Part shown: one piece after another, positions 15,985 to 64,000 of the stretch
How the letters are laid out: each line of letters begins with the position of its first letter
How positions within the stretch are numbered: position 1 is the stretch's first letter
Origin: Candidatus Azotimanducaceae bacterium
GTDB lineage: Bacteria > Pseudomonadota > Gammaproteobacteria > Pseudomonadales > Azotimanducaceae
Direction: 5' to 3'
Length of the DNA: 64,000 bases
Assembly (NCBI GenBank): GCA_965200375.1
Contig: OZ241353.1
Coordinates: 1,153,797-1,217,796 of the forward strand
Made by a program: the position numbers and the translations under genes
Notes under the pieces: model-generated
Told to the model about the DNA's origin: nothing
Database searches by the model: none
What the model saw: the letters and a program-made list of their open reading frames with translations, nothing else

Positions 15985-15998
15985 GGGGGGGGGGGGGG
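15985..15998. repeat. Homopolymeric G14 (C14 on the minus strand) tract
   Basis: Counted directly: ccac + 14 g + tcaaccc. It lies about 215 nt upstream of the minus-strand ATG at 15770. Confidence 0.9.
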
Positions 15999-16233
15999 TC
16001 AACCCTTGTGGCGAAGAAAATCGAACTTTCCGAACTTTCCTTCTGCAATCAATGGCTTGCAGGCGTCTTGCGCCCGGAGAGCGCCCTGGACGCTGCCGGC
16101 AGCCTGGACGCCTTCCGCCGGCGCCATTGGCAGCTGCGTCGTTGATCGCGCGGCGCTTTGCGCGGCCAAGACGCCCGGAACGCGCCCGGATCGCCTGTGG
16201 GCTTGGTTCGAGTTCCTGAACGCCCATTGGCCA

Positions 16234-47968: not shown

Positions 47969-49192
47969 CTACAGCAACTGCGAGAGCAGCGTCCGCGCGG
48001 GGACCACGAGCGGCGGGCCGGGGCGGGCGAAGCAGTCGGCGTCCACGTAGTCCGCTTCCATCGTCGCCTGGAAGGCGAACGGCGCGTCCAGCGCGCGCTG
48101 GAAGTGGGCCAGTGCCGGGCTTGGCGAGACATCCGCGCGCTTCGCTTCCACCAGGAACCAAGGGCGACCGTCCCGCACGACGACGAAGTCCACCTCGCGC
48201 TTCTCCTTGTCGCGCAGATAGCCGAGCTCGAACGCGCCGAGCCCCAAGTCGTTCCAGCCATCGACCGCCTTGCGCAGATGGCAGGCGACGAAGGTCTCCG
48301 CGCGCTGGCCGACGTCCTGGACGGTCGCCCAATCTCCGAGATACCACTTGGGCTCCTTGCGCAGCGACCGAGCGACGTTGCGATGCCAGGGCCGAAGCAG
48401 GAATCCCACATGCAGGTCGCACAGCGTCGCCACCCATCGGCGGGCGGTGTCCACGGCCACCCGCGCCTGATTGGCCAGACGGCCGTACACCAGCTGTTGG
48501 CCGGACTGCGCGGCCAGCATGGCCGCCACCATTTCCAGCTGGCCAAGCTGCTGTACGTTGGTGAGGTCGCGCACATCCTCGCGCAGCAACTGCTCCTGGC
48601 GCAGCGAACGCCAGCGCCGGCTGAAGCGGGCGTCGCGGCGCAGGAACGGCTCCGGAAAGCCGCCGTGCAGCCACAACGCCGCCCAGTTCTCGGCGTCGAT
48701 TCGCCGCGGCTCGCCGACGATGCCGGCGGCGTCCGGCAGGCGCGGCGCAAGCGCTTCGGCGGTCGAGAAGGGGTGCATCCGGTAGCGGAAGTAGCGCCCC
48801 ATCAAGCTGTCGCCGCCGCGCCGGTAGACGTCCAGCCGACTGCTGCCGGTGAGGGCGATGCGCAGCTTGTCGCCGTGGGTGTCGAACAGGCCCTTGAGGA
48901 ACTGCTTCCAGCGCGGAAACTTGTGCAGCTCCTCGAACAGCACCAGTGGCGGCTTCTCCCGAAGCCGGTCGAGGCGAAGGGCGTCGACCAGCCGCGCCGG
49001 GCCGGCCAGCACCAGGTCGCGGCCGTCCAGGTCGTCCCAGTTGACGTAGGCGTCCGCCAGTTGGCGGCAGGTCGTAGTCTTGCCAACCTGGCGCGGCCCG
49101 CTTACGAAGGCCATCTGTCGGTTGCCGGCGTAGTGTTCGGCAAGCAGCGCGTGGTACAGGCGGGGCGTGGACGTGGCGACCATTATCTTCAT
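47969..49192 (-). CDS. AAA-family ATPase with DUF4143-like C-terminus
   Basis: FVSGPRQVGKTT Walker A, LVLFEELHKFPRWKQFLK, and C-terminal REVDFVVVRDGRPWFLVEAK. Start at internal ATG 49192 (MKIMVAT). Confidence 0.75.
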   Translation of the reverse strand: MKIMVATSTPRLYHALLAEHYAGNRQMAFVSGPRQVGKTTTCRQLADAYVNWDDLDGRDLVLAGPARLVDALRLDRLREKPPLVLFEELHKFPRWKQFLKGLFDTHGDKLRIALTGSSRLDVYRRGGDSLMGRYFRYRMHPFSTAEALAPRLPDAAGIVGEPRRIDAENWAALWLHGGFPEPFLRRDARFSRRWRSLRQEQLLREDVRDLTNVQQLGQLEMVAAMLAAQSGQQLVYGRLANQARVAVDTARRWVATLCDLHVGFLLRPWHRNVARSLRKEPKWYLGDWATVQDVGQRAETFVACHLRKAVDGWNDLGLGAFELGYLRDKEKREVDFVVVRDGRPWFLVEAKRADVSPSPALAHFQRALDAPFAFQATMEADYVDADCFARPGPPLVVPARTLLSQLL

Positions 49193-49316
49193 GGTCGCAG
49201 AATGGTCAAGACCAAAATACGATTCGCCGTCGCTTGGTCGAGTGCTTGGCGCCGCCGGGCGGCCGCGTAGGGCGGCAGTACAATGGGCCGCACTGACACC
49301 GTTGAGGGAGCGGGCC

Positions 49317-50417
49317 ATGCGCTTCATGCAATCGAAGGCTTGGGCGGCGCTGCCCGTGCTGGGGCTGGGCCTTGCTGCCTGCGGCCCCACCGCCGGCCCC
49401 GCCGACGATGGCGCTGGCGACGGCGCACCGGCGGCGCAGCCCGCCGCAAGCGGCGACTTCGCCACCGACACGCACAGTTTCGAGCAGGTCGCCGACGGCG
49501 TCTACTTCGCGCGCTACACGGTGCCGGCGTTCAACAGCAACTCGCTGGTGATCGTCGGCGACGAAGACGTCATCGTCGTCGATTCTCACATCACGCCGGC
49601 CACCGCCCGCGCGCTGCTCGCCTCCATCCGCACGGTCACGGACAATCCCGTGAGCGTGGTAGTGAATACTCACTTTCACTACGACCACGCGCACGGCAAC
49701 CAAGCGTTTCCCGGCGCCCGGATAATCGGCCACGCCTTCACCCGCCAGAAGACGGCGACGGCGCCGCTCGAAGAGAAGACGTTCCAGGACCACCTCGCCC
49801 GCACCACCGTCGGCGTCGAACGCTTGCAGGCGGCGCTGGAAGCCGCCGAGACGGAGGAGGACCGGCAGCAGGCCGAGAGCCGCCTCGCCTCCGCCAGGGC
49901 CCAGCTGGCGAACCTTGAGGAGGTGGCGCCGGTGCCGCCGAACATAACCCTCGACGAGCGCATCGTCCTCTACCGGGGCGAGCGGGAGATCCAGCTGCTG
50001 TTCTGCGGGCGCGCCCATACCGGCGGCGACGTGGTGGTCTTCCTGCCCGACGAACGACTGGTGTTCACCGGCGACATGATGCTCGGCGGCCCGTCCTGGC
50101 TTGGCGACGGCTACGTGGACGAGTGGCCGGCAACCTTGGAGAGGCTCAAGGCGTTGGAGTTCGACCTGGTGCTGCCCGGCCACGGTCCCAAGTTCGCGGA
50201 CCGGGCGCTGATCGACCACGTGCAGGACTTCTATCGGGCGCTGTGGACCCAAGTGGCGGATCTGCGGGGCCAGGGCAAGTCCGTGGGGGAAGCCGCCGCC
50301 GCGGTGGACCTGCGGAATTTCGAGGACCGGCTGCCGGGCCGGCGCCTGGGCTTCGACCCGCAGGCCGTGGCGCGCATCTACGAGCGGATGGCGGAGATCG
50401 AGTCCAGCAGCGCCTAG
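49317..50417 (+). CDS. MBL-fold metallo-hydrolase (exported)
   Basis: VVNTHFHYDHAHGN (HxHxDH motif), lipoprotein-like signal LGLGLAAC, GAGGGAG SD before ATG 49317, and TACAAT at 49279-49284. Confidence 0.8.
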   Translation: MRFMQSKAWAALPVLGLGLAACGPTAGPADDGAGDGAPAAQPAASGDFATDTHSFEQVADGVYFARYTVPAFNSNSLVIVGDEDVIVVDSHITPATARALLASIRTVTDNPVSVVVNTHFHYDHAHGNQAFPGARIIGHAFTRQKTATAPLEEKTFQDHLARTTVGVERLQAALEAAETEEDRQQAESRLASARAQLANLEEVAPVPPNITLDERIVLYRGEREIQLLFCGRAHTGGDVVVFLPDERLVFTGDMMLGGPSWLGDGYVDEWPATLERLKALEFDLVLPGHGPKFADRALIDHVQDFYRALWTQVADLRGQGKSVGEAAAAVDLRNFEDRLPGRRLGFDPQAVARIYERMAEIESSSA

Positions 50418-52757: not shown

Positions 52758-54362
52758 ATGACTTCGCAAGTGCTGATCTCCTGGGTTGCGGTGAATAACG
52801 ACCCCTTTGAAGAGAAGCGGCCGAATGTACCGGGGCCGACGCTGACCTTGCTGTTCGACAAGAACTCGCCGCACAAGGGCGACGTTGGCGACGTTGTGCT
52901 TCTGCATCGGCAAGCCGAGCCGGACAGCAAGGAGCAGCAAGCCGTCGCAAAGACGAAGCAGGAGATCGGGCGCAGAGAGAAGGACATCGGCTTGCACTGT
53001 GTTCCTTGGTGCGGCGACGATCCAACCGATCACCGGGCGATCTTCGAGTTTCTGCGCCGAGAACTGCCGCAGCTGAGGCGGCGTTTCGTCGGACGCGAAC
53101 TCGTCATCCACATCAGCCCTGGAACGCCTTCGATGCAGACGATCTGGGTGCTGATGGGCGAGACGGGCTTCATCGGGCCTCCCTTTGTCTTGGTCAAGTC
53201 CTATCGCAGCAAGGACAGACGCGGGCGACCACCGGTGGTGCCGGTGAAGCTCGACATCGAGACGTTCTACAAGGCGTACATATCGGCTCGGCCTCGCCGC
53301 GTGGCATCCGAGGAACAACGCGTTCTGTGGGATCCGACGCACTTCCGTACCGACCGGATGAAGCAGCTATTTGCCGAGGCGCGCCGTTTTGCGGCACTCA
53401 ATGTGCCGGTGCTGCTGCTGGGCGAGCGAGGCACGGGGAAGACGACGCTGGCCAGCTGGATCAGACTCCACAGCCCGTTCCGTCGTGAAGACCAAGACGC
53501 TAGCTGGCCAGCCGTCGCCTGCGGCCAATACAGCCCGGAGACCATGCGCTCCGAGCTGTTCGGCCACCGCAAGGGAGCGTTCACGGGCGCAACCCAAGAC
53601 AATGACGGTCTGATCCATGCCGCCGATGGCGACACGCTGTTCCTTGACGAAGTGGGCGATATCAGCCGCGACCTGCAGCGGCTGCTCATCAGGGCAGTCG
53701 AGGAGAAGGAATACGTCCCACTTGGCGCCATCAAGCCGCAGCGAAGCGACTTCCGTCTCTTGACGGCAACCAACATCAACGCAGACGAACTCCACGATCG
53801 GCTCGATCCGGACTTCCTTGACCGCATAAGTCTTCTCCAGCTGCGCTTGCCACCGCTGCGAGAGGTTCGAGAGGAGTTGCCTTGGCTCTGGCAAGAGACC
53901 TACCGAGAGGCCGCTCGTCGCTCGGGCGTCGTCGAATCCGTCGCGCAACTGAACGCGGACTGCGAGGCGCAGGTCGTCCCGGCGCTCATGGGCCATCCAC
54001 TCCCGGGCAACATGCGCGACTTGCTCAAAGTCGCCTACCGATTGCTCGCCGCGCTTGGCGATCCGCATGAGCCCTTGGCCGGACCCGAAGCCGTTCACTA
54101 CGCGCTCGCTGATTTGGACGACCAGTCGGCTAGCACGAGCAGCGTCTCCGCGGCTGTGGCGCGTGCCTTCGCCGACGCCCGAGACCTTGATGCGGCCTTC
54201 GACGGTTGCGGTGGGGCACTCCCCACCAAGACCGTGGAAGCCGATCTGAGACGGTTCATGGGTACTGAACTGCGCAGGATCGCCAGCGAAAGGGGCTTGT
54301 CCGATGACAATGTAGCCGACACGTCGGGCAGGACATTGCGGAACTGGGCGCTAAGGAGGTAA
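52758..54362 (+). CDS. RtcR-like sigma-54-dependent transcriptional activator (CARF-like N-domain + bEBP AAA+ + C-terminal HTH)
   Basis: N-terminal LVIHISPGTPSMQTIWVLM resembles E. coli RtcR YLIHITTGTHVAQICWFLL. Walker A LLLGERGTGKTT. GAFTGA loop in HRKGAFTGATQD. Walker B TLFLDEVGD. C-terminal ...DTSGRTLRNW is Fis-like. Confidence 0.75.
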   Translation: MTSQVLISWVAVNNDPFEEKRPNVPGPTLTLLFDKNSPHKGDVGDVVLLHRQAEPDSKEQQAVAKTKQEIGRREKDIGLHCVPWCGDDPTDHRAIFEFLRRELPQLRRRFVGRELVIHISPGTPSMQTIWVLMGETGFIGPPFVLVKSYRSKDRRGRPPVVPVKLDIETFYKAYISARPRRVASEEQRVLWDPTHFRTDRMKQLFAEARRFAALNVPVLLLGERGTGKTTLASWIRLHSPFRREDQDASWPAVACGQYSPETMRSELFGHRKGAFTGATQDNDGLIHAADGDTLFLDEVGDISRDLQRLLIRAVEEKEYVPLGAIKPQRSDFRLLTATNINADELHDRLDPDFLDRISLLQLRLPPLREVREELPWLWQETYREAARRSGVVESVAQLNADCEAQVVPALMGHPLPGNMRDLLKVAYRLLAALGDPHEPLAGPEAVHYALADLDDQSASTSSVSAAVARAFADARDLDAAFDGCGGALPTKTVEADLRRFMGTELRRIASERGLSDDNVADTSGRTLRNWALRR

Positions 54363-54500
54363 CTTCTTGCCGGCCGACGGAAGTATATTTCCGAGTGCCG
54401 TGGTGTCGTAGGGGTCGCTCTTGCGCTCTCGCGGCGATGTACACGAAAATACCTATTATAAACAATGTGTTATAAGAACACTGGGTGCGCGATCCGACGT

Positions 54501-54516
54501 TGGCACAGGATTTGCT
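54501..54516 (+). promoter_or_regulatory. Sigma-54 (-24/-12) promoter
   Basis: TGGCACAGGATTTGCT fits TGGCAC-N5-TTGCW, with GG and GC exactly 12 nt apart. It lies 139 nt after the bEBP stop and 36 nt before the ATG at 54552. GAGGA SD at 54539-54543. Confidence 0.65.
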
Positions 54517-54551
54517 CCATCCCACGCGAGCCACTTCCGAGGATCGCTCTG

Positions 54552-54896
54552 ATGGAACCGCAAACGTGCGACACGCACATACTGACGAACCATGCCTTAA
54601 TGCGCATGAGCGCAAGGTACATTCCCGCTGGTGCCGTCGAAGCAGCTTTGCTCCACGGCCGCACCTTTCATGTTCGTGGTGCCGAGATCCACGTCATAGG
54701 CCGCAAAGAGGTGCTGTGGCATAGGAAGAACGGCATTGACCTAGCCGACTACGAAGGCACGCAGGTCGTCTGCGACCCGGATGGCACGGTGGTCGTCACC
54801 GCGTACAAGAACCGCGACTTCCGCGGCTTGCGCCCGCACGGTCGCAGAATGGAGCGGGCCCGCCGCAGAAAACGCGCCGTCGGCGTAGGCAACTGA
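54552..54896 (+). CDS. DUF4258-like protein (BECR-fold RNase toxin-like)
   Basis: THILTNHALMRMSARYIPAGAVEAAL ... VVVTAYKN fits the DUF4258 pattern (HAxxRMxxRxI ... hhTVY). Basic C-terminal tail. Internal ATG of track ORF 54465..54896. Confidence 0.5.
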   Translation: MEPQTCDTHILTNHALMRMSARYIPAGAVEAALLHGRTFHVRGAEIHVIGRKEVLWHRKNGIDLADYEGTQVVCDPDGTVVVTAYKNRDFRGLRPHGRRMERARRRKRAVGVGN

Positions 54897-54911
54897 AGAG
54901 GAGATCAGTTC

Positions 54912-55574
54912 ATGGCCACACTCAAGGAGTTCACCGTCGCGTCCGCTCGTCCGCTGCCCGTCGTCCTCATGGCGGACGTGAGCGGAAGCATGGCCGCCGA
55001 CGGCAAGATCGCCGCGCTCAACTCGGCCGTTGCCGAGATGCAAGCGGCCTTCGCCGAGGAGGACGACGCCCAAGCGGAAATCCACATGGCCGTCGTAACC
55101 TTCGGCGGCACGGCAGCACTGCATCAGCCGCTGACCCCCGCTTCGCAAGTGCAGTGGACGAACATGGAAGCGAACGGCATGACGCCGATGGGCGCGGCGC
55201 TCGACATCGTCACGGACTTGATCGAAGACCGCGAGCGAGTGCCGAGCCGCGCCTACCGGCCCACGGTGGTACTCATCAGCGACGGCTTGCCGAACGACGA
55301 GTGGCAAGGGCCTCTCAAGCGCTTCCACGACTCCGAGCGTGCCGCCAAAGCGCAGCGTTTCGCCCTTGGCATCGGCGCCGACGCGGACCACGACGTGCTG
55401 CGTGCGTTCCTGGGCGACCCGGAAGGCCGCGTGTTCGAGGCGCACGAGGCGCGGGAAGTGCGCAAGTTCTTCCGCTGGGTGACGATGAGCGTCACCGCTC
55501 GTTCGCGCAGCGGCCAGCCCAACCAGGCGGTGGACGTGGATCCGCCGGACTTGGACGATTTCGGCGAGTTCTAG
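54912..55574 (+). CDS. vWA-domain protein (TerY-like)
   Basis: MIDAS motif LMADVSGSM, GMTPMGAAL, VVLISDGLPND. GAGGAG SD before the ATG. Confidence 0.8.
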   Translation: MATLKEFTVASARPLPVVLMADVSGSMAADGKIAALNSAVAEMQAAFAEEDDAQAEIHMAVVTFGGTAALHQPLTPASQVQWTNMEANGMTPMGAALDIVTDLIEDRERVPSRAYRPTVVLISDGLPNDEWQGPLKRFHDSERAAKAQRFALGIGADADHDVLRAFLGDPEGRVFEAHEAREVRKFFRWVTMSVTARSRSGQPNQAVDVDPPDLDDFGEF

Positions 55575-55595
55575 ACGGCGAGAGCTAGGCACCTC

Positions 55596-56312
55596 GTGAC
55601 CCAAACCGTTCAGATGTACGGCGCATCCGTTCGCGGCCCGCGCAACCGCCGCGACGGGCGAGCCAACCAAGATGCCTGGGTGAAGGCATCCGGCACGTTC
55701 GGGCATCTGATCGGCGTCTGCGATGGTGTAGGTTCCTGTCCCAACGCTCATGTGGGTGCCCGCACGGCTTGTCGCGCCTTGCGTCAGGCGGCGAGCCACT
55801 GGCCTGGCGGTTCCGCCTCCCCGAAACACCTCGTGCGCCTGGTCGAGATACTGTGGCGTCTCGGGCTCGAAGACCAGGACGCAACCGAGTGCGCCTGCAC
55901 CTGCATGTTTGCGTTGCGGTCGGCCGATGGCAGGCTGCTGCTGGCAGGCATCGGCGATGGCCTTGCTATGATTCGTGAGGAGGGCGAACTGGCAACTTTC
56001 GGCGGCAGGGGATCGGGCGTCTTCGGCAACGACACGTTGGCGTTGGGAGCGCCCCACAGGATCGACGATTGGTGGATCGCTGCCCGCGCACCGAGTAGCG
56101 GCAAGGCTGTCGTGCTTGCCACCGACGGCGTGGCGGACGACCTCGAAAACGACCGCAGAGGAGCATTCGTGGACTGGATGTGTGGGGAAGTCGGCGAGCT
56201 TGCTCCCGCCGCCCGCTGGCACCGCCTGCGTCGCGAACTGGGGCAGTGGCCCGTCCCCAATCATGTGGACGACAAGACGATTGCGGCGATGGTGGAGGTG
56301 GAGAGAGCATGA
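55596..56312 (+). CDS. PP2C-family protein phosphatase
   Basis: GASVRGPRNRRDGRANQDAW, IGVCDGVGS, VLATDGVADDL match PP2C metal-binding motifs. GTG start in the track; ATG alternative at 55614. Confidence 0.75.
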   Translation: MTQTVQMYGASVRGPRNRRDGRANQDAWVKASGTFGHLIGVCDGVGSCPNAHVGARTACRALRQAASHWPGGSASPKHLVRLVEILWRLGLEDQDATECACTCMFALRSADGRLLLAGIGDGLAMIREEGELATFGGRGSGVFGNDTLALGAPHRIDDWWIAARAPSSGKAVVLATDGVADDLENDRRGAFVDWMCGEVGELAPAARWHRLRRELGQWPVPNHVDDKTIAAMVEVERA

Positions 56313-57706
56313 CGCGCCCGCGGCACGTCACTTCGATTCACGGAATCCGCTACCGGCTAGGCAGCGAGCTGGGGCGAGGCGGTCAGGGCGCCGTCTTCGC
56401 AGTCGAGGGCGAGCGCTTGGCCGTCAAACTGCTCCACGGCCACTCCACGCACCTGCGGGAGCGTCTTCGCGACCAGCTGGCCATGGTGGCAAGACTGCCG
56501 CTTGAAGGACTGGCGGTAGCACGCCCACTAGATCAGCTGCGCCCACCGCATGTGGGCTACGTGATGGAGTTGTTCATCGGCATGGCACCGTTGCGTTCCT
56601 TGCTGCGACCGCCGAAGGGCGTTGACAGCGTGGCGCAGTGGTACATCGATGGCGGCGGCCTTGGTCGACGGTTGAGGTTGCTGGCGCACATTGCCCAAGC
56701 GATTTCGGCGCTGCATGGACGCGCACTGGTCTACACCGACCTGTCGCCGCACAACGTCTTCGTATCGGAGAGCACGAGCGACTGCGAGGTGCGGCTCATC
56801 GACGTCGACAATCTGCATGCGGCGACTGCGATTGGGCGAAGCGTGTACACGCCACGCTACGGGGCACCGGAAGTCGTGCGACAGGTTGGCTTGCCAAGCA
56901 CGCTGGCGGATGCGCACGCTTTCGCCGTGCTCGCCTTCGAGACGCTCGCCCTCGCGCACCCCCTGCTCGGCGACGACGTCCGAGACGGCGAACCGGCACT
57001 GGAGGAACGGGCGCTAGCCGGCGAGTTGCCATGGATCGACGCACAGGACAACGATGGCAACCGATCGAGCGACGGCATCCCGCGAGAGCTGGTGCTGTCG
57101 CCGGTTTTGCAGAACGACTTCCAGACCACTTTCGGGCGCGGTCTGTCGAATCCCGACGAGCGGCCGGGCATGGCTACTTGGGCTGAACACCTGCACAGGG
57201 CGGCGGACCGAACGATCATCTGTCCGTCTTGCGGAGGGAGCTACTTCGTCAACCGGGACGCCTGCCCTTGGTGTGACGCGGCGCGTCCCGACTGCATTGT
57301 GGCGAGGGCGACGCTTTGGGATCCTTGTCGCCGGCGCAGAACTGCAACTGGCGGTGTCGAGGCAGGCGCTGGTCTGGTCGCCAACGGCAATAGCAAGGAA
57401 CGAGTCTTGGACCAAGTCGTGATCTCGGAGCGCCGCCCGTTCAAGCTAACCGAGCGCATCACGCACGGCGCATCGGGCAACACGTCGATGCTGCGGGTCG
57501 AGTTCGCACGAGGACGCATCATCTTGGCGCGGGTCGGCGAAGTTCCCATGCGCCTCGTCTCCGAGAGCGGCAAGGGCGATCGCAACCTAGACCAGCCGGT
57601 GGATGTGCCCATTGCCAATCGCAGCGTGGACGGGCGCATCCATTTCGGGCTGAACGATCAGCTCCATCGCGTCATCCGCTTCGACTTGCACAAGGGCACC
57701 GCATGA
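56309..57706 (+). CDS. Ser/Thr protein kinase with zinc ribbon and uncharacterised C-terminal domain
   Basis: LGRGGQGAVFAV...LAVKLL (G-loop and VAIK-type Lys), YTDLSPHNVFV (HRD-like catalytic loop), LIDVDN (DFG-equivalent), YGAPEV. CPSCGG...CPWC ribbon. ATGA overlap with the PP2C stop. Confidence 0.8.
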   Translation: MTRPRHVTSIHGIRYRLGSELGRGGQGAVFAVEGERLAVKLLHGHSTHLRERLRDQLAMVARLPLEGLAVARPLDQLRPPHVGYVMELFIGMAPLRSLLRPPKGVDSVAQWYIDGGGLGRRLRLLAHIAQAISALHGRALVYTDLSPHNVFVSESTSDCEVRLIDVDNLHAATAIGRSVYTPRYGAPEVVRQVGLPSTLADAHAFAVLAFETLALAHPLLGDDVRDGEPALEERALAGELPWIDAQDNDGNRSSDGIPRELVLSPVLQNDFQTTFGRGLSNPDERPGMATWAEHLHRAADRTIICPSCGGSYFVNRDACPWCDAARPDCIVARATLWDPCRRRRTATGGVEAGAGLVANGNSKERVLDQVVISERRPFKLTERITHGASGNTSMLRVEFARGRIILARVGEVPMRLVSESGKGDRNLDQPVDVPIANRSVDGRIHFGLNDQLHRVIRFDLHKGTA

Positions 57707-60700
57707 ACGTCAGCGACGTGATCCATGGCCGCATCTCCAGCGCAGACCTGCGTCGTGCCAATGGTGAGCCGTTTCCGGCGAGCTTGCAAGCCAAGTCCGA
57801 GGTCGCTGTCGAACAATCGTCAAGTGGCGAGGCGGTGCTCATCATCGGGAGTGACCGGTGGGAAGTCGAAGGCGTTGGCAGCACCCACTCGAGCTTGTTG
57901 CGAGAGGTTGCACGGCGAGGGCTGCCGCGGCTCGCATGGCTCGCGCAAACGTCGCCGAAGCGCGGTCCGGCACAGAGCGTTCTCGTTCAGTTCCACGAGT
58001 TTTCTTTGTCCCTGAACATCCCGGAATCGATGGAGATCGGCGTCGATGACAGGACGGTGGACGACATGCGGCGGCGGCTTCGCCGCCAAATCTCCGTGCT
58101 AGACGCGGCCCGGTGGCTCGCCGAACACATGCTGCTGCCGCCCCGCAAGGAAGGCGGGCCAACCAGAGCGCTGCTGTCCGGCGCCCCCGTTGGCGAACGC
58201 ACCGCCTTTCGCCTCCACAGCAACGGTTTCGCCATCGATGTGCAACGCACCGACGACGACCGCCTCGTGATCAACCGGGTCGTCGAGTCGCGACGGCAGA
58301 TGGAAGGCAGCGACGCCCGTCCGATCTACTTGGTTGCCGCCAACATCCAGTTCCGCGACGCCAGCGCAGCAGGAGCGTTCCGCGGCGCAGCGCAGATCGA
58401 GCTCGATCAGATACTCGCTCAAGCGGACAGCTACCTTGGGTTCTGGCAGGCCTACAACAACAAGGAACGGCAGATCGTCCTGGACAAGGCGCGGCAGTTC
58501 GGTTGGACGAAATACGCGAAGCGCAGCCGCACTGAGGATGGTTCCTGGCGCTTCGACATCAGCGTGAACAAAGACCAGCTTGCAGACCTGTGGCCACGGC
58601 TGAAAGCGCTCGAGGATGAGCAAATCGAAGCGGGGGCGGAAGTGCCGCACGCAATTGAAGGTGCCGACGACACAGCCCTCGCCAGCGGCAATCGCCGTCC
58701 GTTCATCGGCGAACTGGCCCGACAAACCCAGAACCCGCCACAGATCTTCATTCGTCCCCAAGAGCGCCATGAAGACCGCGAGCCACCCAAAGAAGGCTAT
58801 CTCTTCGTCGCCCTTGGCGGCGACGAAGTGCGCGTCAAACGCCGCAAGGACGCTTGGGAGAAGGTCGTCAAGACCGAGAACCCGATGCCGCAGCTTGGCT
58901 TGCTTCTCGAAGGGCAGCCAGTGCCCGAAGCGCGGCGTCGCACGCTGCAACCAATGACCCGTGCGGTGCGCGACGTGTTCGACAGTCCCAGCGACCGACA
59001 GCGCAGTGCGCTCGACGTGGCTTTGAACACTCCGGACATCGCGCTGATTCAGGGGCCGCCCGGCACGGGCAAGACGCGCATCATCGCGGCGCTGCAGGCG
59101 CGTCTCGCCGAGCGGGACGAAGGTGTCAGCGAGAACGGCCTGGCCGGCAACACGCTGCTCACCAGCTACCAGCACGACGCGGTGGAGAACGCCGCCGCGG
59201 CAACCCGCGTGATGGGCCTGCCGGCCGTCAAGGTCGGCTATCGCGCCGGCACCGAGGAGGCCCGTGATGGCGTGGAAATCTGGGCGACCGAAGCTGCCGA
59301 AGCCGTTCGAGCCGCTCGCGCGTCCAATCCCGCCGAAGTCGGCGTCCACGCCGCGCTGGGCAAGGTTCGCGAGGTCGGCGTGGCATTCCTGCAGGCACCG
59401 GCGGAAAAAGAGACGCCAGCGGCCGTGCTCGCGCAAGTGTCAGAGCTTGCCAGCCCGTGGCTGCCGGGCAGGTTGGCGGATGAATTGATGCGCTTGCGAA
59501 CCGAAGTGTCTACCCCGCTCCGGCCCGCCTTGGGCGACGAGAACACAGCCCGTGCCATCAAAGCGGTCCGTGCTCTGCGCACGGAAGCCATCGAGTTCGA
59601 CGACGACGGCCCGCGGAACGCATTCCTGGCGTTACGGCGACTGCGCAGGCTCGAAGGATTCGCAATCGAAGAGGCCGAGGTCGAAGCGCTCGAACGCGCC
59701 GGGGAACCCGGTAGACCGCCAACCGAAGACCTGCTGATGGCATTGCGGGCTGCGAAGGACGCCCTCCTTGATCGTTTGCAGCCGCCCAAGGTCAACGCAG
59801 TCAACCCGCGGCACGCGGACGCCGATGCGATGATCGTCCGCGTCATCGACGATTTAACCGCCAGAGCGAAGGAATCCGCCCCCGGCGTCGACATCGCGGT
59901 GGACGACTGGCTTGCCACTCTGGAACAAGACCCGGACGGCACTCGCGACGCGGTTCGCCACTACTCAATGGTGCTCGCGGCAACCTGTCAACAGGCTGTG
60001 AGCCGCCCGATGGCCGCCGCCAAGCACGGCGAGGACACGGTCTTCCGCACCGTCATCGTGGACGAGGCGGCGCGTGCCAACCCGCTCGACTTGCTCATCC
60101 CCATGACGCTCGCCGAGCGACGGATCGTCCTCGTCGGCGACCACCGGCAACTGCCGCACCTGCTTGAGCCGGACATCGAACGCGAGCTGCAACAGTCCGC
60201 CGAGGATGCCGAGGACATACAGGAAGAGATGCGCTCCGCGCTGCGCCTCAGTTTGTTCGGGAAGCTGTTCACCGAGCTTCGCCAGCGCGAGAGGCGCGAC
60301 GGTGTTCAACGCACGGTCACGCTCAACCGCCAATACCGCATGCATCCGCGACTTGGGTTGTTCGTGAGCGCCCAGTTCTACGAACCGTACGGCGAAGGGT
60401 TCGAGTCTGGGCGCAGCGAGGAAGAGTTCGCGCACGAGGTCTCGATCGGCAAGGGCGGTTCGCAGGTCAGTCTTGCGGGGAAAGTGGCGGCATGGGTGGA
60501 CGTACCGGTTCGCCAAGGCGAGGAGGGTCGCGGACGGAGCGGACGGAGCAAACGGCGCGACGTGGAAGCAAGACGCATCGCCGATGAAGCGTACATGGTG
60601 ATCAATGCACACCCGGATCTCAGCGTAGGCGTCGTCACCTTCTACATGGCCCAGCGCGACGAAATACTCTCCTCGATGACTGAACAGGGACTGACGGAGC

Positions 60701-61059
60701 GCACTGCCGAAGGCGCCATCAGCGTCCGCGAAAAATGGCGGTTGACGGCCGATGGCCGCGAGCGGCTGCGCGTCGGAACCGTGGACTCGTTCCAAGGCAA
60801 GGAGTTCGACGTGGTGTTTCTCTCCTTGACCCGCTCGAACCGCGTCCAAGGCGACAACGAAGTGGCGCGGCGGCGGCGCTACGGCTTCCTGCTGCTCGAG
60901 AACCGCCTCTGCGTGGCAATGAGCCGACAGCAACGCTTGCTGGTGGTTGTAGGAGATGCAGCGATGGCTACAGGTGTCGAAGCCGAATCTGCCGTGCCGG
61001 CCTTGACCGCATTCTTGGAACTCTGCAAGGGGTCGCATGGGCATGTCCTTCGGGCCTGA
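57703..61059 (+). CDS. Superfamily 1 helicase, Upf1/DNA2-like (AAA_11/AAA_12-type) with ~440-aa unknown N-terminal region
   Basis: LIQGPPGTGKTR (motif I), VIVDEAARANP (II), VLVGDHRQLPH (III), LNRQYRMHP, TVDSFQGKEFDVVFLSL, VAMSRQQRLLVVVGD. ATGA overlap with the kinase stop. Confidence 0.85.
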   Translation: MNVSDVIHGRISSADLRRANGEPFPASLQAKSEVAVEQSSSGEAVLIIGSDRWEVEGVGSTHSSLLREVARRGLPRLAWLAQTSPKRGPAQSVLVQFHEFSLSLNIPESMEIGVDDRTVDDMRRRLRRQISVLDAARWLAEHMLLPPRKEGGPTRALLSGAPVGERTAFRLHSNGFAIDVQRTDDDRLVINRVVESRRQMEGSDARPIYLVAANIQFRDASAAGAFRGAAQIELDQILAQADSYLGFWQAYNNKERQIVLDKARQFGWTKYAKRSRTEDGSWRFDISVNKDQLADLWPRLKALEDEQIEAGAEVPHAIEGADDTALASGNRRPFIGELARQTQNPPQIFIRPQERHEDREPPKEGYLFVALGGDEVRVKRRKDAWEKVVKTENPMPQLGLLLEGQPVPEARRRTLQPMTRAVRDVFDSPSDRQRSALDVALNTPDIALIQGPPGTGKTRIIAALQARLAERDEGVSENGLAGNTLLTSYQHDAVENAAAATRVMGLPAVKVGYRAGTEEARDGVEIWATEAAEAVRAARASNPAEVGVHAALGKVREVGVAFLQAPAEKETPAAVLAQVSELASPWLPGRLADELMRLRTEVSTPLRPALGDENTARAIKAVRALRTEAIEFDDDGPRNAFLALRRLRRLEGFAIEEAEVEALERAGEPGRPPTEDLLMALRAAKDALLDRLQPPKVNAVNPRHADADAMIVRVIDDLTARAKESAPGVDIAVDDWLATLEQDPDGTRDAVRHYSMVLAATCQQAVSRPMAAAKHGEDTVFRTVIVDEAARANPLDLLIPMTLAERRIVLVGDHRQLPHLLEPDIERELQQSAEDAEDIQEEMRSALRLSLFGKLFTELRQRERRDGVQRTVTLNRQYRMHPRLGLFVSAQFYEPYGEGFESGRSEEEFAHEVSIGKGGSQVSLAGKVAAWVDVPVRQGEEGRGRSGRSKRRDVEARRIADEAYMVINAHPDLSVGVVTFYMAQRDEILSSMTEQGLTERTAEGAISVREKWRLTADGRERLRVGTVDSFQGKEFDVVFLSLTRSNRVQGDNEVARRRRYGFLLLENRLCVAMSRQQRLLVVVGDAAMATGVEAESAVPALTAFLELCKGSHGHVLRA

Positions 61060-62599
61060 AACGCCGCTGCTCCTGTACGGTCTCCGTCCCCACGCGGACC
61101 CAGGCGGACGCAACGATCGCGTGTGGCTGGGCTGGCCCGCATGGGCGTTCCGCGTCGTCGCACCGGAGTTCCGAAGCAGACGCTTGAACGCATTGCAGAA
61201 GGCAGTGCTGGGCGTCTTGCGGGCAAGCCGCCTCACCGAGGCCGCGCTCGGCAAGCGCCTGGGCATTCATCGCGAGCTGGCCGCCGTTGTGGTTGCGGAC
61301 TTGCAGGGGCAGCAGCGAGTCGACAAGGATTGGAAGGTCACGCGGGACGGCATCCGGCTCCTTGAAGCCGAGGCAGCTGAATCGGCCAAGTTGGTGCCCG
61401 CGTGGATGTTCCGCGATGCGTTGAGCGGAGACCTGTTGCCATTCGCCGCCCCCACTCTGGAACACGCCCGAACCGTACCGAACGAGGAAGGCTCTCCCGT
61501 GCTCGACCTTGGCTCGACCGGGAGCCCGTGGCAGCAGAGGCCGTGGACGCTGCGGGCACCACGAGACGCGTTTCCGGAGATGCCCGTGCCTGCCGAAATC
61601 CTCAAGGCGGCGCGGCAAAGCCAGCGATCTCACAGACTTTGGCAGCAGGTTGGCACGCACAAAGACGACGATCTCGATGAACCGAACGTCGAGACCGGTC
61701 AACTCGACCGTCTGACGAGCATCGAGGAAGAACCGCGGCCGGTCTATCTGGTGACGTTCCTCTACACCCCCAGAGGCGAAGAATCGGACGGCGATTGGCA
61801 CGTCTGCGAGTTCTTTGGGCGTGGTCATGATCCGTCGCTGCGACCGAGCGTCATCAAGGCTGCGAAGAGCGACCAGAATCTAGCCCGGCTACTGGACCGC
61901 CGACTCTTCACGTTTACGCGGCACGGCGATCTGGAAGGGTTCCAAACGGCCACCAAGGAGCGCGAACAGCGGGCACGCCGGCTGCTTGCACGCGTTCTCA
62001 CCATTGGCATCGAAAACTACAGCGCCGTCGCCACGCCACTACGGGAGACGCTCGACGCCTACTTGGAATGGCGCGACGTGGGAGACGTCGGGGCCGCTAG
62101 GCTTCGTCGCCATGTGCTGATGGAGTGTCGGCGGACGTTGGAGGCCCTGTTCACCGCCGTCGCCCGCTCCCATCCTATCGGAAGCGTAGCCGATCTGCTG
62201 TCGCACGAAGATCGGGCGCTCAACGAGACGACGCTGCGGGGCGCGGCGAAGGAACTGGGGTTGAGTTCGTTGCCCAATGCTCTTGGCCGCGTCTCCCGAG
62301 GGCAAGTCCGCGCGGTCAGCGACTACACCGATGGCTGGCGCCTGCGCCCACTGGTGGCGGCAATCCTGTTGCGGGCCCGTGGTGACGCCAAGCACCCCTT
62401 GGCGCTCGCCGCCAAAGACGCACCCAACATCCTTGAGCGTGTCGAACGGGTGGCAAAGCATGGTGGGAAAGCTGCGCACGAGGACCGCGGAGTGGATGGC
62501 GCACCTCTGGAACAGGTTGTCCAAGACACGCTAGACGTCTCGGGGCTGCTCCTTGGACTCCCCACACGAAAACTTGAGGAACTGACGACCGATGCCTAA
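61037..62599 (+). CDS. Hypothetical protein, possible N-terminal winged-helix domain
   Basis: 520-aa ORF overlapping the helicase 3' end by 23 nt. LQKAVLGVLRASRLTEAALGKRLGIHRELAAVVVADLQGQQRVDKDWKVTRDG looks like MarR/wHTH. The remainder is unassigned. Confidence 0.6.
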   Translation: MGMSFGPETPLLLYGLRPHADPGGRNDRVWLGWPAWAFRVVAPEFRSRRLNALQKAVLGVLRASRLTEAALGKRLGIHRELAAVVVADLQGQQRVDKDWKVTRDGIRLLEAEAAESAKLVPAWMFRDALSGDLLPFAAPTLEHARTVPNEEGSPVLDLGSTGSPWQQRPWTLRAPRDAFPEMPVPAEILKAARQSQRSHRLWQQVGTHKDDDLDEPNVETGQLDRLTSIEEEPRPVYLVTFLYTPRGEESDGDWHVCEFFGRGHDPSLRPSVIKAAKSDQNLARLLDRRLFTFTRHGDLEGFQTATKEREQRARRLLARVLTIGIENYSAVATPLRETLDAYLEWRDVGDVGAARLRRHVLMECRRTLEALFTAVARSHPIGSVADLLSHEDRALNETTLRGAAKELGLSSLPNALGRVSRGQVRAVSDYTDGWRLRPLVAAILLRARGDAKHPLALAAKDAPNILERVERVAKHGGKAAHEDRGVDGAPLEQVVQDTLDVSGLLLGLPTRKLEELTTDA

Positions 62600-64000
62600 G
62601 AGCCGCCAGCGTAAGAACAGAAGACAGCGCTCGCCACGTCCGCAGTCGCAGCCGATGGCACAACGTCCTGCCAAGCCAGCCCAATCTCCGACGGCAACGA
62701 AGGCGGAGGTCGAAAAGGCCCATGAAGAGGCCGTCGCCGGCGCGACGGAGTTCGAAATCGCAGCCCTCTCGATCGATCCGAGACCGCCAGAGCTGGACTT
62801 GGACGGCATGTGGAAGGTGGCGCAAGAGGCTCGCGACCTATTCCGCGCCGCGACGCGGCGGCACGAAGTGTTGTCGGAAGAGCTCCAAGCGCAACGAGAT
62901 GATTTCGGCCGGAAATCCCAAGAGCTCGACGAGCGCGCATCCAAGTTGGAGACCGACCGGAAGGACCTGGACGAACGAACCAGCCAGCTAGGCGATCGCG
63001 AGCTCCAGATCCGTGAGCGGGAAGCCGACGCCGAGCACGGCTTCGAGGACAAACGCATCGCGATGCTCGCACAGTACGACGACGTGATCGCCAAGCGACG
63101 CGAGACGTTGGACGAGCGCGAGAACGTACTCAACGAGCGAGAGAACGAACTGGAGCAGAAGGCGCGGCAAGTCGCCCGCCAAGAGCAACAGCTCCAATGG
63201 AGACAAGAGGACATCCAAGAGCAGGAACGCGATCTCGACAGTCGCGTTGAACGCCGGACTGCGGGCAAACAGGAAGAGTACCAGCACCATCTTGAGGCTG
63301 TTGAGGCCGAACGGGATCAAGCGCGAAGAGACCGAGATCAACACGCCGCCGCTTTGCGGGAACGTGAAGAAGCAGATCGCAGATTCGGGCAGCGCACGCC
63401 GGAACAAGTGCTTTCGGAACTCGACCGGCTGAATGTCGAGAACAAGGGACTGCAAGCACAGCTAGCTGCCCGCCCGAATATCGACGCCATTGAACGCCGC
63501 GCGGCTCTCGACCAAGAGCAGCAGTCGTGTCAGGCAGAACGCTTGGATCTGACGCGCCAAGTGTCCGAGTTGAAGCGTCGCCTTGCCCACGCCGACAGCG
63601 ATGCGGGCGAACGGGAAGTGCAGCGGGATCGAATCGCCGCACTGGACTCGCAACGGAAACTCCTGCACAGAGCCCACGAAGAACTGCGTGCCGAGGTGCA
63701 CGAGATCATCAGCCGCGGCGAGTCCCAATCGCGGTTCCCAGAGTGCATCGACATGGACGAAGACGACGAACTGCAACGCGCCGCACAGACCGCCAAGGGT
63801 TTCGGCAGCTTGGAAGAGTTCGCCCACGACGTCCGCCACCGGATCGCCCGAGATGGCCTCTACTACACCGAGGCGGACATCCGCAGCTTCATCGGCGGGT
63901 TGGCGATGGGCAGGCTGACTCTCCTGCAAGGCCTCAGCGGCACCGGCAAGACCAGCCTGCCGATCGCCTTCGCGAAGGCTGTGGGTACGAAAGCGTCGGT
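62592..64000 (+). CDS. Coiled-coil protein ending in a P-loop NTPase domain (McrB/AAA_5-like?), 3' end outside the window
   Basis: Not in the track because it has no stop. I translated it by hand from ATG 62592 (MPKSRQRKNRRQRSP...) and it is open to 64000. About 350 aa are E/R/Q/L-rich heptad-like sequence, then YYTEADIRSFIGGLAMGRLTLLQGLSGTGKTSLPIAFAKAVG (Walker A). Confidence 0.7.
   Translation, partial: MPKSRQRKNRRQRSPRPQSQPMAQRPAKPAQSPTATKAEVEKAHEEAVAGATEFEIAALSIDPRPPELDLDGMWKVAQEARDLFRAATRRHEVLSEELQAQRDDFGRKSQELDERASKLETDRKDLDERTSQLGDRELQIREREADAEHGFEDKRIAMLAQYDDVIAKRRETLDERENVLNERENELEQKARQVARQEQQLQWRQEDIQEQERDLDSRVERRTAGKQEEYQHHLEAVEAERDQARRDRDQHAAALREREEADRRFGQRTPEQVLSELDRLNVENKGLQAQLAARPNIDAIERRAALDQEQQSCQAERLDLTRQVSELKRRLAHADSDAGEREVQRDRIAALDSQRKLLHRAHEELRAEVHEIISRGESQSRFPECIDMDEDDELQRAAQTAKGFGSLEEFAHDVRHRIARDGLYYTEADIRSFIGGLAMGRLTLLQGLSGTGKTSLPIAFAKAVGTKAS

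Follow-up and report, generated by a model that had tools for sequence, protein, structure and literature searches.

The operon that begins at 54552 is separated by a 189-bp spacer from a co-directional gene for a putative sigma-54 activator, and the question raised by this locus is from which promoter, and with the help of which upstream sites, the operon is transcribed. The initial annotation had placed a sigma-54 promoter in the spacer, preceded by an AT-rich stretch that was taken for a bending site or for the UAS of the activator. We have analysed this spacer in the window, that is the whole stretch of 64,000 nt to which all coordinates refer, together with the corresponding spacers of related loci. 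What could be observed directly are the sequence elements of the spacer, the conservation and constant spacing of these elements among related loci, and the domains of the encoded proteins. On this basis we consider it very probable that 54357-54551 constitutes an entire sigma-54 promoter region of the enhancer-dependent kind, which would drive an RtcR-associated CoCoNuT operon.

Gene content of the locus

The activator gene and the genes that follow it in the window are listed below.

52758-54362, + strand: activator gene, encoding a 534-aa CARF-AAA+-HTH bEBP, an RtcR homologue (PADLOC, Pfam, NCBIfam)
54552-54896, + strand: first operon gene, encoding a 114-aa DUF4258 protein, BrnT-like (DUF4258 3.8e-5, 24.3 bits)
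54912-55574, + strand: TerY-like vWA protein of the TerY-P triad (Pfam VWA_2, VWA and vWA-TerF-like)
55596-56312, + strand: PP2C phosphatase of the TerY-P triad (PP2C_2, 4e-29)
56309-57706, + strand: Ser/Thr kinase of the TerY-P triad (Pkinase, 1e-11); start codon in an ATGA overlap with the PP2C stop codon
57703-61059, + strand: CnuH, a 1118-aa UPF1-like SF1 helicase (AAA_11, AAA_12; MkoA 1.6e-85; IGHMBP2-family)
61037-62599, + strand: CnuE-like 520-aa protein, in the position of the expected wHTH-HEPN effector (weak MkoB match)
62592-64000, + strand, ending at the window edge: CnuB, with a long N-terminal coiled coil followed by a McrB-type P-loop, GLSGTGKTS

The best PADLOC model of the activator is RtcR_PspF1--CARF_AAA_HTH (E 4.5e-154), and Pfam recognises Sigma54_activat (7e-40). 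Its best NCBIfam model is RtcR (NF038308), with a score of 200 bits that falls under the 650-bit equivalog cut-off, and the neighbouring genes are CoCoNuT genes, not rtcBA; the protein was therefore named an RtcR homologue and not RtcR proper. Both Walker motifs are present, and among 17 homologues no variation is seen in the Walker A sequence GERGTGKT or in residues F275-A278 of GAFTGA. The gene adjoining the promoter thus encodes the AAA+ domain with a GAFTGA loop that is looked for in a cognate bEBP. This activator family is large, and its members are well conserved, with 58-100% identity among the best 120 matches.

All the operon genes lie on the same strand as the activator gene and are tightly packed or overlapping. 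The core of a CoCoNuT is found in the expected succession (UPF1-like CnuH, then CnuE, then the coiled-coil McrB-type GTPase CnuB), and it is accompanied by the TerY-P triad and by a co-oriented CARF-bEBP gene on the 5' side, in an order that recurs in about 40 loci. Considering both gene content and order, the predicted operon is an RtcR-associated CoCoNuT (Type II / III-A). [quoted passage not shown] Neither Pfam nor NCBIfam gives a match for the 520-aa protein that occupies the CnuE position, and no profile match to HEPN was obtained; an RGDAKH sequence (RxxxxH) can be read in its translation, with RVAKH 25 residues later. The CnuB homologues of two related loci, L081 and L082, have 762 and 748 aa respectively, and the L082 copy gives a faint AAA_5 match. 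CnuC, the McrC homologue that should follow CnuB, would be situated past the window edge. For the first operon gene, the DUF4258 score of 24.3 bits is slightly under the 25-bit cut-off, and 16 of the 16 aligned homologues match this family (best E 9.3e-8); no PDB sequence match was obtained for the 114-aa protein, either with the single sequence or with a profile. We call it BrnT-like because of its DUF4258 assignment and of the naming used by Bell et al. 2024 (PMC11090510).

The GC3 of the cassette (52758-64000) is under that of the flanking housekeeping genes (0.8-0.95), a level reached only by the vWA ORF, and the cassette is placed in unrelated genomic contexts in L081, L082 and L083. It therefore looks like an acquired island, and like a mobile defence island. 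A gene for an AAA_14/DUF4143 ATPase is located close upstream of the cassette both in the window (47969-49501) and in L082. Neither the cassette nor the spacer was found a second time when the window was searched.

The -24/-12 element

Three features define the downstream part of the spacer.

54501-54516, + strand: sigma-54 -24/-12 element TGGCACAGGATTTGCT (GG at 54502-54503, GC at 54514-54515)
54526-54528, + strand: predicted transcription start, placed according to the usual sigma-54 geometry about 12 nt 3' of the -12 C
54539-54543, + strand: Shine-Dalgarno sequence GAGGA, 8 nt ahead of the ATG at 54552

The element TGGCACAGGATTTGCT matches TGGCAC-N5-TTGC at 10 of 10 positions (54501-54515) with an exact GG-to-GC spacing, and is found 139 nt past the stop of the activator gene and 36 nt ahead of the ATG at 54552. 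The motif with its canonical spacing at 54501-54516 of the + strand, as well as the GAGGA followed by the ATG, had been reported in the initial annotation and can be read directly from the sequence. The annotation had also described this element as the only good -24/-12 match of the window and had suggested scoring it with a PSSM, and both points are borne out. Indeed, the zero-mismatch motif occurs as a single copy in the 64-kb window, and with a matrix built from 36 orthologous sites (the window excluded) TGGCACAGGATTTGCT at 54501 ranks first in the window with 21.5 bits, the runner-up reaching 12.0 bits.

Judged from the window alone, a perfect motif is statistically not unusual. By chance 0.25 copies are expected and at least one copy was present in 22 of 100 shuffles; when one mismatch is allowed, 6 occurrences were observed against 6.09 expected. 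The chance that a random perfect match would land on the + strand of the 189-bp spacer is estimated at about 3e-4. The significance of the motif comes therefore from its placement in the spacer and from its conservation in related loci, and not from its count in the window.

With a start near 54527, the predicted leader would have a length of about 25 nt. No sigma-70-like site was found on the + strand of the spacer between activator and operon, and no terminator was found after the activator gene. The operon may also receive transcripts by read-through from the activator gene or from internal promoters. On the minus strand, a sigma-70-like sequence (ACGACA-16-TATACT, 9/12) at 54382-54409 overlaps the proximal palindrome described below and is probably due to chance.

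Conservation of the -24/-12 element in related loci

Related loci were collected in two ways: three by exact protein look-up (L081-L083) and 80 from metagenomes by a CARF-only alignment search. The gene order of the window is shared by about 40 of the collected loci, and the promoter comparison was made on 40 non-redundant spacers located between the activator gene and the next gene. A match of at least 9/10 to TGGCAC-N5-TYGC is present on the coding strand in 32 of these 40 spacers, and of at least 8/10 in 37; on the reverse strand of the same spacers, the corresponding numbers are 0 and 1. The element is situated 73-147 nt past the activator stop and, in the loci where the scan found a start, 19-83 nt ahead of the projected gene start. 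The positions that did not enter the score also agree with the extended sigma-54 consensus, with T before TGG in 68%, G after CAC in 76% and A/T after GC in 89% of the cases. PSSM matches of at least 13 bits are found within 300 nt past the activator stop in 43 of 61 loci and elsewhere amount to 11 in 894 kb scanned, figures which, like the other PSSM and enrichment values, are partly circular because the sites were chosen by consensus and the same sites trained the matrix. The loci with a conserved element have activators of only 46-73% identity and come from metagenomes of many different environments. The recurrence of the element on the same strand in 32 of the 40 related spacers, the fit of the unscored positions and the presence of a GAFTGA-bearing bEBP upstream all speak for the sigma-54 promoter that the initial annotation had proposed.

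Where a more distant activator homologue is not followed by the BrnT-like or vWA genes, promoter and palindrome are both missing downstream, which provides a natural negative control. Thirteen activator homologues with 43-55% identity (L109, L113, L122, L123, L126, L129, L130, L134, L138, L141, L143, L151 and L159) have no BrnT-like or vWA genes after them, no promoter and no palindrome downstream. A few cassette-bearing loci (L121, L109) are without a recognisable -24/-12 element.

Some loci depart from the common arrangement. A subclade composed of L147, L148, L152, L156 and L128 carries TGGCAC-N5-TTGG or TTGA, not TTGC, at the -12 position; its palindromes are located at about -125/-103 rather than at -148/-127, and the right half-site is often TGCCG. 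On sequence, these five loci represent a variant layout of promoter and enhancer. In L117 and L119, a good -24/-12 match is located 5' of the activator gene, on the opposite strand. Finally, the strongest off-target match of the family PSSM in the 894 kb (19 bits) lies on the minus strand of L081 at about 9815, in the vWA-PP2C region, and is probably a chance occurrence.

Tandem palindromes upstream of the promoter

When 37 loci were anchored and aligned on the promoter, a palindrome of the form CGGAA-N6-TTCCG emerged, which is represented twice in the window.

54378-54393, no strand: proximal UAS candidate CGGAAGTATATTTCCG, a perfect CGGAA-N6-TTCCG
54357-54372, no strand: distal, weaker UAS copy AGGTAACTTCTTGCCG, 7/10 to CGGAA-N6-TTCCG

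The palindrome is present with at least 8/10 in 34 of the 37 anchored loci and begins between -128 and -121 in 27 of them, most commonly at -127. Its density is 9.0 per kb, versus 0.57 per kb in the remaining sequence of these loci. In the window, CGGAAGTATATTTCCG is one of only two perfect copies; its first base lies 123 nt ahead of the T of TGGCAC, and it is centred at about -141 from the predicted start. The distal copy AGGTAACTTCTTGCCG starts 21 bp upstream of CGGAAGTATATTTCCG and overlaps the TAA stop of the activator gene. In related loci, too, the main palindrome is repeatedly accompanied by a partner 21-22 bp further upstream (-148 or -147). Both palindromes of the window are inside or beside the region covered by the initial annotation, which had missed them and had looked for the UAS within the AT-rich patch; the candidate UAS is instead the CGGAA-N6-TTCCG at 54378-54393, together with the weaker copy over the stop codon. 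The former is situated, at a near-fixed offset, in the range where a UAS is expected (about 80-150 bp or more upstream).

The position of the palindrome was compared with that of the activator stop codon, which drifts from -73 to -147 while the palindrome holds its distance to the promoter. The palindrome is non-coding in the window and in L081-L083, L089, L096 and L158, and in other loci falls within the variable C-terminal tail of the activator, where it is seen as an 'RK..SE' remnant. This attachment to the promoter despite a wandering stop codon, together with the palindromic symmetry, argues for a constraint at the DNA level. In most of the loci where it is placed in the coding tail, the palindrome keeps one reading frame, so that a protein-level constraint may also act in those loci. 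Conservation is strong in the HTH region of the activator (invariant D521 and W530; R525 and R528 kept in 90% or more), which fits the conserved half-site, and we infer that the RtcR homologue binds the CGGAA-N6-TTCCG sites.

The AT-rich stretch and the candidate bend

Two further features occupy the interval between the palindromes and the promoter.

54445-54481, no strand: AT-rich stretch gaaaatacctattataaacaatgtgttataagaacac, the 5' part of which (54445-54459) is an A/T tract beside the IHF-like core
54460-54472, + strand: IHF-like core AAACAATGTGTTA, 8/9 to WATCAANNNNTTR

The exceptional AT-richness reported near 54440-54480 is confirmed by the composition of the window, since the most AT-rich 40-mer of the 64 kb is found here (30/40, in a window of 67.8% G+C). 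The short repeats that had been pointed out are also present in gaaaatacctattataaacaatgtgttataagaacac as read directly from the sequence, with TTATAA at 54455-54460 and 54470-54475 and GTGTT-N5-AACAC at 54467-54481. In the comparison they were not conserved: over the 37 loci their columns have a low information content, the TT of the IHF core excepted. For this reason neither GTGTT-N5-AACAC nor the TTATAA pair was kept as a UAS candidate.

The centre of the IHF-like core AAACAATGTGTTA is at about -61 from the predicted start; the core is 41 nt upstream of the promoter element and has an A/T tract on its 5' side. Across the 37 promoter-anchored loci, the AT content shows a peak of 0.55-0.62 at -60 to -21, with flanks at about 0.38. 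When matches to WATCAANNNNTTR of at least 7/9 were counted on the + strand over 260 offsets, 17 of 33 fell at -44 to -40. A match of this quality at -44 to -40 is present in 16 of the 37 loci, a count to be read in the light of a pattern that is short, degenerate and set in AT-rich DNA. An IHF-type bend at the AT-rich patch is likely from these comparisons. The initial annotation had left the choice between an IHF bend and a UAS: the bend is favoured by the position-conserved IHF-core match and by the likeness to E. coli rtcBA, and the UAS is not retained.

The window contains only one other strongly AT-rich spot, at 15987-16060 (26/40 at 16014-16053). It includes the single perfect IHF core of the window, AATCAATGGCTTG at 16047-16059, a direct repeat of GAACTTTCC (two copies, at about 16024-16042) and a G11 run at 15987-15999; no -24/-12 element with correct spacing was seen near it. 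This spot edges a 4-kb stretch (12.4-16.4 kb) of ORFs without Pfam match, beside pepA, valS and prs.

RNA structure of the spacer and leader

Predicted RNA structure is not significant for the spacer (z -0.18) or for the window leader (z -0.14), and no Rfam family was found anywhere in the window. For the leaders of the other loci, RNAalifold gave no consensus structure and single-sequence folds mildly beat shuffles (z -1.2 to -1.7). Most related loci are predicted to give a sigma-54 transcript whose 50-60-nt leader includes a GC-rich hairpin (for example L083 10819-10881, L093 2284-2346, L135 1652-1714, L150 1577-1636 and L104 2551-2595), the 5' end of which also pairs with bases between the Shine-Dalgarno sequence and the ATG. 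By eye, changes in these leaders appear compensatory (CCGATGG/CCATCGG, CGGTGGC/GCCACCG, TTCGGTGGT/ACCACCGAA and CTTGGGGGC/GCCCCAAG), which suggests translational control in those loci. The leader of the window is short and without this hairpin.

Proposed mechanism and alternative explanations

We propose that sigma-54 RNA polymerase would sit on TGGCAC-N5-TTGC (54501-54516) as an inactive closed complex, and that the C-terminal HTH of the RtcR homologue would bind the tandem palindromes at 54378-54393 and 54357-54372, located about 140 and 160 bp ahead of the start. The DNA would be looped by IHF, or by a different bending protein, placed on the AT-rich core at 54460-54472. Upon release of the CARF auto-inhibition, the AAA+ ring would touch sigma-54 via GAFTGA, hydrolyse ATP and open the promoter. 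Transcription would then begin near 54527 and would drive the BrnT-like gene, the TerY-P triad, cnuH, cnuE, cnuB and further genes past the window. The closest named relatives of the host LeuA are MAGs of Pseudomonadales, a group that carries rpoN. In this scheme the binder of each site, the start point, the inducing signal and the dependence on rpoN are predictions drawn from sequence.

Other explanations have to be weighed against this scheme. The promoter and the CGGAA palindromes could both be real and the AT patch be something else than an IHF site, namely an intrinsic bend, a site for a different nucleoid protein (Fis, HU or a silencer of acquired DNA of the MvaT/H-NS type) or DNA that melts easily. 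The core is degenerate (8/9 in the window, and at least 7/9 at the conserved offset in 16 of 37 loci only), AT enrichment is commoner across loci than the core match, and the cassette looks horizontally acquired, as judged from its low GC3 and the varied contexts in L081-L083, a kind of DNA that attracts silencers. We nevertheless regard this explanation as unlikely, given that core matches cluster in a 5-nt window (17/33 over 260 offsets), that E. coli rtcBA, the promoter of which has been described with an IHF site, shares both core and offset, and that the patch covers only about 40 bp and is located halfway from the UAS to the promoter, where IHF sites are classically found. That the activator would bind inside the patch, on GTGTT-N5-AACAC or on the TTATAA pair, the patch then being the UAS, seems very improbable to us: the arm columns carry little information over the 37 loci, with the TT of the IHF core as the one exception in that segment, the patch is at about 20-55 bp from the -24 element, too near for a typical looping enhancer, and a far better conserved and phased palindrome is available at about -123 from the T of TGGCAC. 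These observations outweigh the existence of the palindrome at 54467-54481 and of a comparable ATTAG-N5-CTAAT at the equivalent place in L082.

We give hardly any credence to a last explanation, according to which the -24/-12 motif is a chance match and the operon is transcribed either from a sigma-70 promoter or by polymerases reading through from the activator gene. A perfect copy does arise somewhere in 64 kb in 22% of shuffles, and the lack of a detectable terminator after the activator gene makes read-through possible. However, the sequence, strand and position of the element are conserved in many environments although activator identity is only 46-73%, the UAS and bend candidates co-occur with it at fixed distances, it is missing where the cassette is missing, and no sigma-70-like sequence is present on the + strand of the spacer. 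The enhancer-dependent sigma-54 promoter accordingly remains our preferred reading of the spacer.

Implications for CoCoNuT regulation

More generally, and with some reserve as to whether it holds, we suggest that CoCoNuT/TerY-P operons may be silent and switched on only via sigma-54 by a dedicated CARF-sensing activator, with the tandem CGGAA-N6-TTCCG locked about 125 nt from the -24 element, often in the coding tail of the activator, and with an IHF bend. If this were true, CoCoNuT/TerY-P would be an inducible immune operon, and self-amplification would be possible should the BrnT-like or HEPN RNases make 2',3'-cyclic-phosphate RNA ends that are sensed by the CARF domain. The enhancer motif would then mark a regulon over several bacterial lineages and offer a direct way to search for the inducing signal.

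The type of switch is standard, and the promoter itself is an ordinary example of a well-understood class. What is new here are the cis-elements and the fixed geometry for a defence system whose regulation had been inferred from gene order alone. If confirmed, the locus would clearly exemplify an anti-phage operon whose expression is controlled by sigma-54 together with a CARF sensor, and would help to explain how a potentially toxic RNase-based system stays off until needed. The motif allows the regulon to be searched for in genomes, and the model is open to simple experiments.

Comparison with known systems

In IHF-assisted sigma-54 promoters such as nifH, Pu and glnHp2, tandem palindromic enhancers are combined with an IHF bend between them and the -24/-12 element. 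The spacer of the window resembles this class by its palindromes about two helical turns apart, located 100-160 bp upstream, and by the candidate bend in between; it differs by its CGGAA/TTCCG half-site and by the family of its activator.

For the CoCoNuT systems themselves, Bell et al. 2024 (PMC11090510) propose from gene context that the CoCoNuT genes are activated by an RtcR homologue bound to a UAS. The RtcR-associated Type II / III-A CoCoNuTs presented there fit the window in gene content and order, from the RtcR homologue through CnuB/McrB. The passages searched in that article name no promoter, UAS or IHF site for them, 'sigma' appearing twice and 'promoter' once. In the literature searched, no description of a sigma-54 promoter or UAS for CoCoNuT or RtcR-like defence loci was found.

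By analogy, the closest parallel to the proposed mechanism is RtcR at rtcBA. The E. coli rtcBA promoter has been described as containing a UAS together with an IHF site and a -24/-12 element (Kotta-Loizou et al. 2022, PMC9650030), the same three parts for which the window has candidate sites, and RtcR of the E. coli/Salmonella rtcBA system (rsr-rtcBA) has the same CARF-AAA+-HTH architecture as the activator of the window. The spacing is also similar: in E. coli rtcBA, TGGCACGACGGTTGC is preceded by AAACAATGAATTA 40 nt upstream, and the core of the window is 41 nt upstream of its element. Several differences separate the two systems. The activator of the window is only RtcR-like (200 bits against the 650-bit equivalog cut-off, with RtcR_PspF1 as the best PADLOC model), and CGGAA-N6-TTCCG is not seen in the E. 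coli rtcBA spacer. In the window, activator and operon are co-directional and the candidate enhancer is at or over the 3' end of the activator gene, whereas the E. coli genes diverge. Finally, the cargo is a defence operon in the window and RNA repair genes in E. coli rtcBA.
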